64,000 nt of DNA, from assembly GCF_054482595.1 (NCBI RefSeq), contig NZ_CM137008.1. One strand, 5' to 3'. The translations under genes were made by a program, and so were the position numbers. Numbering within the stretch: the first letter of the stretch is position 1; each line of letters opens with the position of its first letter. Below are positions 49,622-62,714 of the stretch, one piece after another. The notes beneath the pieces were generated by a model. It was not told the DNA's origin, searched no databases, and saw only the letters and a program-made list of their open reading frames with translations.

Positions 49622-50983
49622 TCACTTACCGTGGGGATTACGCGTGGTTTCCCCGGAGAAATTACGCATCAGCAGCGCGTAATTGAGCTCAAGATCCTGC
49701 GGGACCGGGAGCCACACAGTATAACCATCGCCTGGTGCTATCGGCATAGCTTCGCCTTTGGCGTTTTCCATGTGCTCAAGGGTAAAATTAATGTTGCCTT
49801 GCGGCGTCATCAGCTCAAGGCTGTCGCCAACGGAGAATTTATTTTTCACCGCTACCGCCGCGAGGTCCCCCTTGCGCTCACCGGTAAACTCACCAACAAA
49901 CTGCTGGCGGTCAGAAACTGAATAACCGTATTCGTAGTTCTGATAATCGTCGTGAGTATGACGACGCAGGAAACCTTCGGTATAGCCACGATGCGCCAGA
50001 CCTTCCAGAGTTTCCAGCAGGCTGGTATCGAACGGTTTTCCCGCAGCGGCGTCATCGATAGCTTTGCGGTAAACCTGTGCGGTGCGTGCACAATAGTAGA
50101 AAGATTTGGTACGACCTTCGATTTTCAGCGAATGCACGCCCATTTTGGTCAGGCGTTCTACATGGGCGATGGCGCGCAGATCTTTCGAGTTCATGATGTA
50201 AGTGCCGTGCTCATCTTCAAACGCGGTCATATACTCGCCCGGACGCTGGGCCTCTTCGATCATAAACACTTTGTCGGTTGGTGCGCCGATACCCAGCGTC
50301 GGCTCAACATTTTGCACCGGAATCGGCTCGTACTTGTGTACGATGTTGCCAACGTCATCTTCTTTCCCTTCCTGGACGTTGTACTCCCAGCGGCAGGCGT
50401 TGGTGCAGGTACCCTGGTTCGGATCGCGCTTGTTGATATAGCCAGAGAGCAGGCAGCGACCGGAGTAGGCCATGCACAGCGCACCGTGAACGAAGATCTC
50501 GATCTCCATATCCGGCACCTGATTGCGGATCTCTTCAATCTCTTCCAGCGACAGCTCGCGAGAGAGGATCACGCGGGTCAGGCCCATTTGCTGCCAGAAT
50601 TTCACCGTCGCCCAGTTTACGGCGTTAGCCTGCACCGAGAGGTGGATCGGCATTTCAGGGAAGTGCTCACGCACCAGCATAATCAGCCCTGGATCGGACA
50701 TAATCAGCGCATCCGGCCCCATTTCCACCACCGGTTTCAGGTCACGGATAAAGGTTTTCAGCTTGGCGTTGTGCGGTGCAATGTTGACCACGACATAAAA
50801 CTTTTTCCCCAGCGCGTGGGCTTCATTGATGCCGAGCTGAAGATTTTCGTGGTTGAATTCGTTGTTGCGCACACGCAGGGAGTAACGCGGCTGGCCCGCA
50901 TAAACAGCATCTGCGCCATAAGCGAAAGCGTAACGCATATTTTTCAGCGTTCCCGCCGGGGAAAGGAGTTCCGGTTTAAACAT
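49622..50983 (-). CDS. yegQ: Peptidase U32-family protein YegQ (453 aa)
   Basis: Full-length ORF with U32-family Cys-rich region. Confidence 0.9.
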   Translation of the reverse strand: MFKPELLSPAGTLKNMRYAFAYGADAVYAGQPRYSLRVRNNEFNHENLQLGINEAHALGKKFYVVVNIAPHNAKLKTFIRDLKPVVEMGPDALIMSDPGLIMLVREHFPEMPIHLSVQANAVNWATVKFWQQMGLTRVILSRELSLEEIEEIRNQVPDMEIEIFVHGALCMAYSGRCLLSGYINKRDPNQGTCTNACRWEYNVQEGKEDDVGNIVHKYEPIPVQNVEPTLGIGAPTDKVFMIEEAQRPGEYMTAFEDEHGTYIMNSKDLRAIAHVERLTKMGVHSLKIEGRTKSFYYCARTAQVYRKAIDDAAAGKPFDTSLLETLEGLAHRGYTEGFLRRHTHDDYQNYEYGYSVSDRQQFVGEFTGERKGDLAAVAVKNKFSVGDSLELMTPQGNINFTLEHMENAKGEAMPIAPGDGYTVWLPVPQDLELNYALLMRNFSGETTRNPHGK

Positions 50984-51129
50984 AATTCTCTCGTTCTGAT
51001 GACAGGTCAGATCCGCTTCACCTGATGAAGCGGTTAGGGGAGTGCCCCCACTTTAAGGGCGGGCATTGTAGCGCTGTGGGGGGATCTGGTAAAGCGCCGG
51101 ACGCCAACAACCCACGCCCGGCATCGTAA

Positions 51130-51462
51130 TTACGTATTGTCTTTCACCGTCTGGCTTGTGCCATTGGCTTTAACGGAGGCAATTCCGGTTTCACGAGATT
51201 GCGCGGTGGCGTACATCTGGCTGGAGCCGATAATTTGATGATTAGCGGCTTTCAGATTGAAATAGAATTTGCCGTTACTTGCCGTTTTTTTCTCATAGCG
51301 TTCTTCTTGCGGGCTGTTGCTACGCACCGACGCGATGCCCTTTTCCGCAGAGGCTTTTGAGGTATACAGCTCGCTGGTGAGGATAGTCTCACCATTGCCC
51401 GCTTTTAGCACAAACCGGAACTGATTATCACTGCTCTTACTGAGTTCAAACCAACCAGCCAT
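51130..51462 (-). CDS. yegP: YegP, tandem DUF1508 protein (110 aa)
   Basis: Two internal repeats (FRFVLKAGNGETILTSELYTSKASAEKGIASVRSN and FYFNLKAANHQIIGSSQMYATAQSRETGIASVKAN); ORF trimmed to the ATG at 51462 with an aaggag RBS. Confidence 0.8.
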   Translation of the reverse strand: MAGWFELSKSSDNQFRFVLKAGNGETILTSELYTSKASAEKGIASVRSNSPQEERYEKKTASNGKFYFNLKAANHQIIGSSQMYATAQSRETGIASVKANGTSQTVKDNT

Positions 51463-51652
51463 AATGACTCCTTGATTGAAATTGTGTATCGAAAACAGCA
51501 TCTAAAGGTGCTGTTTACCGATTAAAGTATGAGCGATTTTCTGATGCCTGCCAGGGCGGAGAGATAATGTCAGTTTGCTGACCATGCGTGGGATAATGTT
51601 GCCGGATCGGGTCTGAACGCCATCTCCGGCTAACAAAATAATGTCGCTAAAA

Positions 51653-52375
51653 CTAAACGATGCGGCAGGCGTCGGCTTCCCAGCGGTAACCGACGCCATA
51701 AACGGCGCGGATAAATGACTGTTCGGCGTCGAGAGATTCCAGCTTGCGGCGCAGGTTTTTAATGTGGCTGTCGATGGTGCGGTCGGTTACTACGCGGTAG
51801 TCGTCATAAAGATGATTGAGCAATTGCTCGCGGGAGAACACTTTTCCTGGTTCGTGAGAGAGCGTTTTCAGCAGACGAAATTCCGCAGGCGTCAGGTCAA
51901 GCATTTTACCGCGCCATGAAGCCTGAAAACGACCTTCGTCGATAATCAACGGACTTTCAGCATCCTGTTGCTGCAATTCGCGCTGCGGTTTGCAACGGCG
52001 CAAAATGGTTTTGACGCGCGCTACCACTTCCCGTGGGCTGTACGGCTTGCAGATGTAGTCATCTGCGCCAATCTCCAGCCCCAGCAGGCGGTCGATCTCT
52101 TCGATTTTTGCTGTCACCATCACGATAGGAATGTCAGAAAAACGACGAATTTCCCGGCACAGCGTCAAGCCATCGGTGCCAGGGAGCATCAGATCCAACA
52201 GGATCAGATCCGGTGGTGTCTGGCGCACATACGGCAGTACCTGATCGCCGTGGCTGATAAGCGTCGGCGCATAGCTCGCAGCACGCAGATAATCAATGAG
52301 CAACTGCCCCAGCTTCGGTTCATCTTCCACGATCAAAATACGCGGTGTGTTTTCGTCGATTGGTAACTCGGTCAT
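51653..52375 (-). CDS. baeR: OmpR-family response regulator BaeR (240 aa)
   Basis: Receiver domain ([14 protein letters not shown]...[14 protein letters not shown]) plus winged-helix output; start overlaps the baeS stop. Confidence 0.95.
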
Positions 52376-53775
52376 ACTTCTCTCTGTAAATCCCGTTCCA
52401 GCGGTAACTCTACTGTAATGCTTACCCCGCCAAAAGGCGAATGGGCAGCAATAATGCGGCCATTATGTGCTTCAACAATGTTCAGGCAAATCGCCAGCCC
52501 CAGCCCGGAACCGCCGCTGGCGCGGTTGCGGGAACCTTCGGTGCGATAAAAACGTTCAAACAATTTTTGTAGCTGATCGTCACTGACACCTGGCGCACTG
52601 TCGGCAAAGGTCAGGCGCACCGTTTTGTCGCGCTGCCCGGCAGAGATTTGCAGGCTGCCGCCGCTGTCAGTGTAGCGCAGGCTGTTTTCCAGTAAGTTAT
52701 TGAATAACTGCATTAAACGGTCGCGATCGCCAAATACGGTAATACTGTCTGGCAGGGAAAATTGCAGTTTCAGGCCACGACTGGCGAATCGTTCGCGAAA
52801 TGCGCCGCCCGCCACTTCCAGCAGTGGGATCAAATCTACCGGTGCTTTTTGATAGGCGAGAGCGCCTTCATCAGACATCGACAACTGATGGAGATCGTCA
52901 ACCAGTTTGGTCAGTGTACCGACCTCCGCCTGTAAAGACGCCACCGTCTCCGGCGTGAATTTACGCACGCCATCCTGAATGGCTTCCAGTTCACCGCGCA
53001 GCACCGCTAATGGCGTACGCAGTTCGTGAGAAATATCGGCCATAAAATCGCGCCGCATTTGCTGGTTTTTCTCCAGTGTGCTGGCAAGCTGGTTGAAGTC
53101 TTGCGCCAGTTTGCCCAGTTCATCTTCACTGGTGGGCGTTACGCGGGTAGTGAAATCGCCCGCCGCCAGTTTGTGCGTGCCATCGACAAGTCGTTTTACC
53201 GGTGCCAGTAAACCGCGCGCCAGCAGAAAAGTGGCAAGTGCCGCGAGTAACGTTGCCAGGGCGACAATCAACCAGCTGGTTTGCCGCTGTTGTTTATCGA
53301 AATTGATATCAGTATTGCGCGTTAACCGCTCAACGGGGGAGGCGATCACCGCGCCAACTTCCGCACCGTTGACCAGAATGGGTCGCCGTGTACCGTCAGG
53401 TGGAATCGGCGCTCGCGGACCAACCAGCACTTTGTTGTTTTGATCAACCACCCAGAACTGGGTACGCCAGCCGTGCGGTGGCATACCCGGGCCGGGTTTA
53501 TCTTCCGAATTATCGTGTTCAAATGAACGCAGGATCTGAAAGACAAAGCGATCATTGTTGCGCAGGAAGCGCCAGTTGCCATGCTGCGCATACTGCTCGC
53601 CAAGCGCATCACTTAACAGTTGTAATCGCTGTTCATTACCATGCTTGATGTAATCAATAAAGCCACGCTCAAAACTGATACGCACCGCCCAGTGCATACT
53701 GATCAGCAAGACAATGCAGGTGGCGAAAATCGCCAGAAACAGTTTGCCGGTAATACCAGGTCGCCAGAACTTCAT
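52372..53775 (-). CDS. baeS: Envelope-stress sensor histidine kinase BaeS (467 aa)
   Basis: HAMP, H-box ([14 protein letters not shown]) and HATPase motifs; overlaps the mdtD stop. Confidence 0.95.
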
Positions 53776-62683: not shown

Positions 62684-62714
62684 AGCCAGCCAATAAGGGA
62701 GAAAAATGGAGGAA
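62684..62714 (-). promoter_or_regulatory. Candidate BaeR box upstream of mdtA
   Basis: Minus strand reads ttcctccatttttctcccttattggctggc, close to the recalled BaeR consensus TTTTTCTCCATDATTGGC. Confidence 0.55.

Follow-up and report, generated by a model that had tools for sequence, protein, structure and literature searches.

The open reading frame at positions 51130..51462 (minus strand) of the window analyzed here, a 64,000-nt stretch of contig NZ_CM137008.1 (NCBI RefSeq assembly GCF_054482595.1), is E. coli yegP. Its product is structured as a two-domain pseudo-dimer, and very probably the gene forms a σS-dependent transcription unit of its own, i.e., it is a neighbor and not a member of the adjoining efflux operon mdtABCD-baeSR. 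In this model, YegP is a cytoplasmic protein of 110 amino acids (aa) with two tandem DUF1508/UPF0339 domains, in each of which a helix follows a β-meander of three strands; the two domains pack as an intramolecular pseudo-dimer, such that a single chain reproduces the homodimer of single-domain family members. The gene would be a monocistronic, σS-dependent general-stress gene, transcribed from its own CTGGCA-17-CATACT promoter in the baeR-yegP spacer into an mRNA that ends at a hairpin just past the stop codon. The identity of the locus is clear: the window matches E. coli chromosomes with up to 100% identity, the yegP region is 100% identical to chromosomes in which it is annotated as “yegP: YegP family protein,” and the 901 bp around the gene (annotated yegQ, yegP, baeR) are matched in nearly every complete E. 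coli genome (5423/5426).

Two tandem domains in a single chain

A first-pass annotation of the window had described YegP as two tandem modules of approximately 50 aa, a description that is borne out by self-alignment, by Pfam and by the solved structure 2K8E. The repeat is already visible in the peptides quoted at that stage (residues 15-49 versus 66-100, with 17/35 positions identical), and the self-alignment that had been suggested as a check detects a significant internal repeat: the best local alignment pairs residues 5-53 with residues 56-104 without gaps, corresponding to a period of 51 aa, 19/49 identical residues, and a BLOSUM62 score of 91. When the second half was shuffled (n = 5000), scores averaged 23.3±4.6 and never exceeded 50, such that none of the 5000 shuffles reached 91 (z = 14.8); with shuffles of the whole protein, scored at the best cut, the top score was 48. 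Pfam assigns two DUF1508 (PF07411) stretches to YegP, at 153.1 bits against a gathering cut-off of 22 (E = 1.7e-45). Counted column by column in 28 homologues, the motif F-x-L-K-A-x-N-x3-I-x2-S-x2-Y-x8-G-I-x-S-V-x2-N occurs in both halves, and its family form, F-x-L-[KR]-A-x-N ... S-x2-Y ... G-I-x-S-V-x2-N, is present in each domain. An additional Pfam match to CarboxypepD_reg (15.5 bits, cut-off 32.3) was taken as noise.

At the DNA level no repeat was found within yegP; when aligned by codon, the two halves share 50% identity, and the repeat is visible only in the protein. Among the 28 homologues, which are 48-94% identical, mean identity amounts to 54% between N-terminal modules, 53% between C-terminal modules, and 40% between N- and C-terminal modules. 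Since N-terminal modules resemble each other more than they resemble C-terminal modules, the duplication is older than the divergence of the YegP subfamily. The internal duplication is ancient and fixed across the subfamily of ~110-aa proteins. The alternative, namely that the internal similarity reflects chance, low complexity, or a recent duplication of DNA, draws on the shortness of the modules and has no other support. It is extremely improbable in view of the shuffling results, the two independent Pfam domain matches, and the recurrence of the same fold in solved as well as predicted structures, while a recent duplication is ruled out by the DNA identity of the halves and by the identity values among homologues.

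The structure determined by nuclear magnetic resonance under Protein Data Bank (PDB) entry 2K8E is that of the same protein, with 109/110 residues identical, and the AlphaFold (AF2) model of YegP (predicted local distance difference test score, pLDDT, of 92) agrees with it at a template modeling (TM) score of 0.95. In the model, β-strands 4-9, 15-20, and 26-29 precede helix 36-49 in the first module, and β-strands 56-60, 66-71, and 77-80 precede helix 87-100 in the second, i.e., each domain has a β-β-β-α fold that is superposable on solved family members. DUF1508 proteins have been described in the form of single domains that assemble into a homodimer (6Q2Z), of tandem domains that form a “symmetric pseudo-dimer” (2K8E), and of extended arrays (Gong et al., bioRxiv 10.1101/2024.11.21.623966). 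The two-module build of YegP is thus already known from Pfam, InterPro, 2K8E, and the literature, and its recognition here adds little to a structure deposited in 2008 and to recent papers.

Transcription of yegP

The predicted yegP promoter (Table 1) lies in the 190-nt spacer downstream of baeR. A genomic SELEX (systematic evolution of ligands by exponential enrichment) study with RpoD holoenzyme lists both the CTGGCA and the CATACT hexamer for the baeR>yegP spacer and reports binding of RNA polymerase holoenzyme there (PMC3946193). Equivalents of this promoter occur in Enterobacter (CTGGAA-17-CATACT), in Kluyvera (CTCGCA-17-CATACT), and upstream of a homologue in a Pseudomonas sp.-labeled genome that has no baeSR neighbor (CTGGAA-17-CATACT). 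The CATACT −10 element, the C at −8 and the A/T-rich stretch downstream appear compatible with recognition by σS. In published transcriptomes, yegP is listed as RpoS-regulated in strain EDL933 with a 185-fold dependence (PMC2907692), and it is counted among general-stress hub genes together with osmY, dps, elaB, and otsB, being co-induced with osmY, dps, and otsB (PMC9501238, PMC10734530). yegP is absent from the RpoS chromatin immunoprecipitation sequencing (ChIP-seq) supplement of Peano 2015, and the supplements of SMRT-Cappable-seq mention neither yegP nor baeR.

At the other end of the gene, the Term-seq data of Adams et al. (PMC7815308, 2021; supplementary file 1) assign to yegP a “primary” 3′ end at coordinate 2165559(+) of strain MG1655. 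Mapped by sequence, this position corresponds to 51092 in the window, the second U after the 51123..51095 hairpin of the yegP terminator. All in all, the preferred reading is that yegP forms a separate transcription unit of ~430 nt. With a promoter and a terminator of its own, it would be adjacent to mdtABCD-baeSR and not part of it.

The first-pass annotation had, however, noted that yegP follows the baeSR-mdt operon on the same strand and had considered co-expression by read-through. The location is correct, with baeR 190 nt away. The proposed co-expression is weakly supported and for the most part not supported: adjacency and the lack of a canonical baeR terminator in E. coli speak for it, while the conserved spacer promoter, RpoS dependence, and the lack of a BaeR box speak against it as the principal route. 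In its full form, the proposal would make yegP a functional distal gene of the mdtABCD-baeSR transcript: under envelope stress, BaeR would activate the mdtA promoter, and read-through would then co-express yegP. The gene order from mdtC to yegQ (mdtC-mdtD-baeS-baeR-yegP-yegQ), which is kept in Enterobacter and Kluyvera, fits this proposal. By contrast, the open reading frames from mdtA through baeR overlap or abut, and the gap that follows baeR carries the conserved promoter, so that operon-like spacing ends there. The BaeR box reportedly has the consensus TTTTTCTCCATDATTGGC; a search of the whole window with up to 3 mismatches returned a single match at 62689..62706, upstream of mdtA, and none near yegP. 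Furthermore, yegP tracks the RpoS regulon in published transcriptomes, just three of the searchable papers name both yegP and baeR, with no co-regulation reported in passages from two of them, and close homologues of yegP exist without baeSR.

Two points nevertheless count in favor of read-through. First, a consensus scan for a canonical intrinsic terminator between baeR and yegP in E. coli gave only a weak 5-bp hairpin, and the weak hairpins of this spacer lack a T-run. In Enterobacter, baeR is followed by a strong terminator (L001 4876..4909), GAAACCCGCC-CTCT-GGCGGGTTTT and then a T-run, which folds into a stem of 10 bp, 6 of them GC pairs (−18.1 kcal/mol), between baeR and the yegP promoter and itself speaks against the read-through proposal; E. 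coli differs by ~54 extra nt after the baeR stop codon and by a degenerate hairpin at the aligned site. Second, in the Term-seq table the 200 nt upstream of yegP are free of listed 3′ ends (PMC7815308), although the missing baeR 3′ end may reflect low expression of baeR in the sampled conditions. Minor read-through from baeR into yegP may occur in E. coli because no strong terminator follows baeR. Taken together, yegP as a functional distal gene of the efflux operon is unlikely, and transcription from its own σS-dependent promoter is preferred.

Directly downstream of the yegP −10 element, a stable hairpin is predicted at the 5′ end of the mRNA (Table 1). Comparison with Enterobacter and Kluyvera shows no obvious conservation of the hairpin sequence, and the hairpin could serve as a 5′ stabilizer or as a weak block to read-through; an Rfam scan (E-value mode) of 50800..51900 found no RNA family. 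For experimenters, this layout outlines the expected yegP mRNA, which would be made from the gene's own promoter, carry a hairpin at its 5′ end and stop at the mapped 3′ position, while baeR upstream lacks a strong terminator.

Family architectures and putative function

The searchable literature yielded no experimentally shown function of YegP, and clues come mainly from the family at large. An exhaustive HMMER search over 1.84 billion cluster representatives (50%-identity clusters) returned 3802 matches at E <= 1e-3. The top scorers (P0121-P0166) reach up to ~1,560 aa, with the whole two-domain YegP unit recurring 5-9 times, and in several of the long array proteins Pfam recognizes only DUF1508, in 8-10 copies. 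Other proteins combine the module with further domains: P0253 (323 aa) fuses tandem DUF1508 to a HEPN_RiboL-PSP predicted RNase domain, P0186 carries four DUF1508 copies and a proprotein-convertase P-domain, and the C-terminal positions 358-405 of the NCBIfam tryptophan-tRNA ligase model NF008923 (PRK12284) match YegP. The HEPN fusion and the PRK12284 C-terminus hint at an RNA-related ligand. In addition, tandem DUF1508 precedes the β-grasp domain of some Bub ubiquitin-like proteins (bioRxiv 10.1101/2024.11.21.623966) and, in some Menshen NsnA proteins, is found at the N-terminus in the “sensor” position, where the module has been proposed to be like the single-stranded nucleic-acid binders of the sPC4/Whirly type (PMC12065111).

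Because the tandem module is found elsewhere as a fusion partner of nuclease, tRNA-synthetase, ubiquitin-like, and antiphage proteins, the YegP pseudo-dimer could act as a small module that senses or binds a ligand, single-stranded nucleic acid being one possibility. In this reading, YegP may be a small pseudo-dimeric binder that is induced by stress and for which single-stranded nucleic acid is the leading candidate ligand. Two results weigh against a firmer assignment: the basic charge that might point to nucleic-acid binding is not shared across the family (isoelectric point of 9.4 for E. coli YegP, family range 5.3-10.1), and a comparison of YegP with the PADLOC models of defense proteins gave 0 families at E <= 1. 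A further version of this idea combines a free-standing tandem-DUF1508 sensor, which binds single-stranded nucleic acid or another stress ligand, with envelope-stress read-through on top of σS control. Such an extra input is conceivable in E. coli because the strong baeR terminator of the Enterobacter type is missing, but we consider the combination improbable.

A different proposal would be that YegP is a stand-alone component of the antiphage or DNA-damage response, with the tandem DUF1508 as infection sensor, and not a general-stress protein. At 57 loci, homologues of yegP are found downstream of the DNA-damage regulators capK/capS, and the authors of that study commit to no role (PMC13373217). 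A 79%-identical Kosakonia homologue (L006 4001..4333) lies away from baeSR and close to DNA methylase, DUF4928, HTH_35, and pyocin S genes, a context that is typical of mobile or defense islands; together with the sensor position in Menshen NsnA and the HEPN RNase-type fusion of P0253, this would fit a defense role. There is also a phage counterpart, phrog_1422 in PHROGs, which matches YegP over its full length (positions 1-110 of 110, E = 1.9e-64), but homologues occur in only 3 of 50,697 phage records. Apart from the missing PADLOC match, the fixed core-genome position in E. coli, reflected in the 901-bp region described above, and the flanking of yegP by housekeeping genes instead of a variable island render a dedicated antiphage function quite improbable, and a general-stress protein under σS control remains the preferred reading. 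Homologues were also found in 52 records of the plasmid collection, some of which are chromosome-sized.

The DUF1508 family is large, spans bacteria, archaea, and phages, and is often fused to or located beside defense or stress modules. With its abundance in stationary phase, its solved structure and the genetic tractability of its host, E. coli YegP is a natural entry point for ligand-binding or phenotype screens.

Gene boundaries and neighborhood

On the minus strand of the window, the genes follow the order mdtA-B-C-D, baeS, baeR, yegP, yegQ, where mdtA, mdtB, mdtC, mdtD, and baeS were named by the order and size of their open reading frames. The 84%-identical homologue in the Pseudomonas sp.-labeled genome has neighbors unrelated to baeSR. 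The N-terminus of YegP reads MAGWFELSK, and its start codon is preceded by a Shine-Dalgarno sequence that is kept in Enterobacter, Kluyvera, Kosakonia, and the Pseudomonas-labeled genome. Because this conserved AAGGAG sits before ATG 51462, the 110-aa start is preferred over an upstream in-frame ATG at 51501 (minus strand; extension 51463..51501), which would open a 123-aa reading frame. The latter start was rejected: it lacks a Shine-Dalgarno sequence, Enterobacter shows no conservation of the segment 5′ of the AAGGAG, and homologues begin with MAGWFEL or MSGWFEL. The 123-aa start is used by some public annotations (e.g., P0005), and ATG 51501 is probably a mis-called start.

Two observations concern the region before yegQ. 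A promoter-like TTTACC-17-TACAAT for yegQ (51065..51093, minus strand) begins at the U-run of the yegP terminator and is identical in Enterobacter and Kluyvera, and a perfect palindrome, CCGCTTCA-CCTGA-TGAAGCGG, is located in the yegQ leader at 51013..51033.

Table 1. Positions of yegP and associated features in the window.
Feature	Position	Strand	Remarks
baeS	52372..53775	minus	
baeR	51653..52375	minus	Final gene of mdtABCD-baeSR; 190-nt gap to yegP downstream
Weak hairpin GTCAG-CAAA-CTGAC	51569..51582	minus	5 bp, −5.7 kcal/mol, no T-run; aligned with the Enterobacter baeR terminator site
yegP promoter (predicted)	51526..51554	minus	−35 CTGGCA 51554..51549, 17-nt spacer, −10 CATACT 51531..51526
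Stable hairpin at predicted 5′ end of yegP mRNA	51488..51522	minus	−13.7 kcal/mol, z = −4.7, 0/200 shuffles as stable
Shine-Dalgarno AAGGAG	51468..51473	minus	5 nt 5′ of ATG 51462
yegP coding sequence	51130..51462	minus	110 codons and TAA stop; translation equals the peptide of the first-pass annotation
First DUF1508 module, residues 5-53	51304..51450	minus	Self-alignment, Pfam stretch 11-57, AF2 secondary structure
Second DUF1508 module, residues 56-104	51151..51297	minus	Self-alignment, Pfam, AF2 secondary structure
yegP terminator	51092..51123	minus	GC-rich hairpin 51123..51095, −18.3 kcal/mol, then UUU
yegQ	49622..50983	minus	

Comparison with known systems

The closest known counterpart is YegP of E. 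coli K-12 (UPF0339, 2K8E, two PF07411 domains), which shares the gene, its location with baeR and yegQ as flanking genes, and the two-domain fold. The protein of the window differs from the 2K8E construct by one substitution, with Ala encoded by codon 37 (51352..51354, minus strand) in place of Thr37. T37 is reported as a phosphosite in an E. coli phosphoproteome (PMC8055822), and position 37 varies among homologues. SO_3888 of Shewanella oneidensis (PDB 2K49) is orthologue-like and 65-66% identical to YegP, but stems from a different organism. The single-domain UPF0339 proteins HVO_2922 (6Q2Z), NMB1088 (3BID), and Atu0232 (2K7I) have one domain per chain, compared to two in YegP; 6Q2Z is described as a homodimer and the three entries hold 2 to 8 chains, whereas YegP has the equivalent arrangement within one chain. 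For the sPC4/Whirly superfamily, with its dimeric or pseudo-dimeric module of β-sheet plus helix, a likeness to tandem DUF1508 has been proposed in the literature (PMC12065111). With the mdtABCD-baeSR operon, finally, yegP shares adjacency, orientation, and synteny in Escherichia, Enterobacter, and Kluyvera, but it differs from this operon by the 190-nt distance, by a predicted promoter and a terminator of its own, by the lack of a BaeR box, and by its RpoS dependence in published data.
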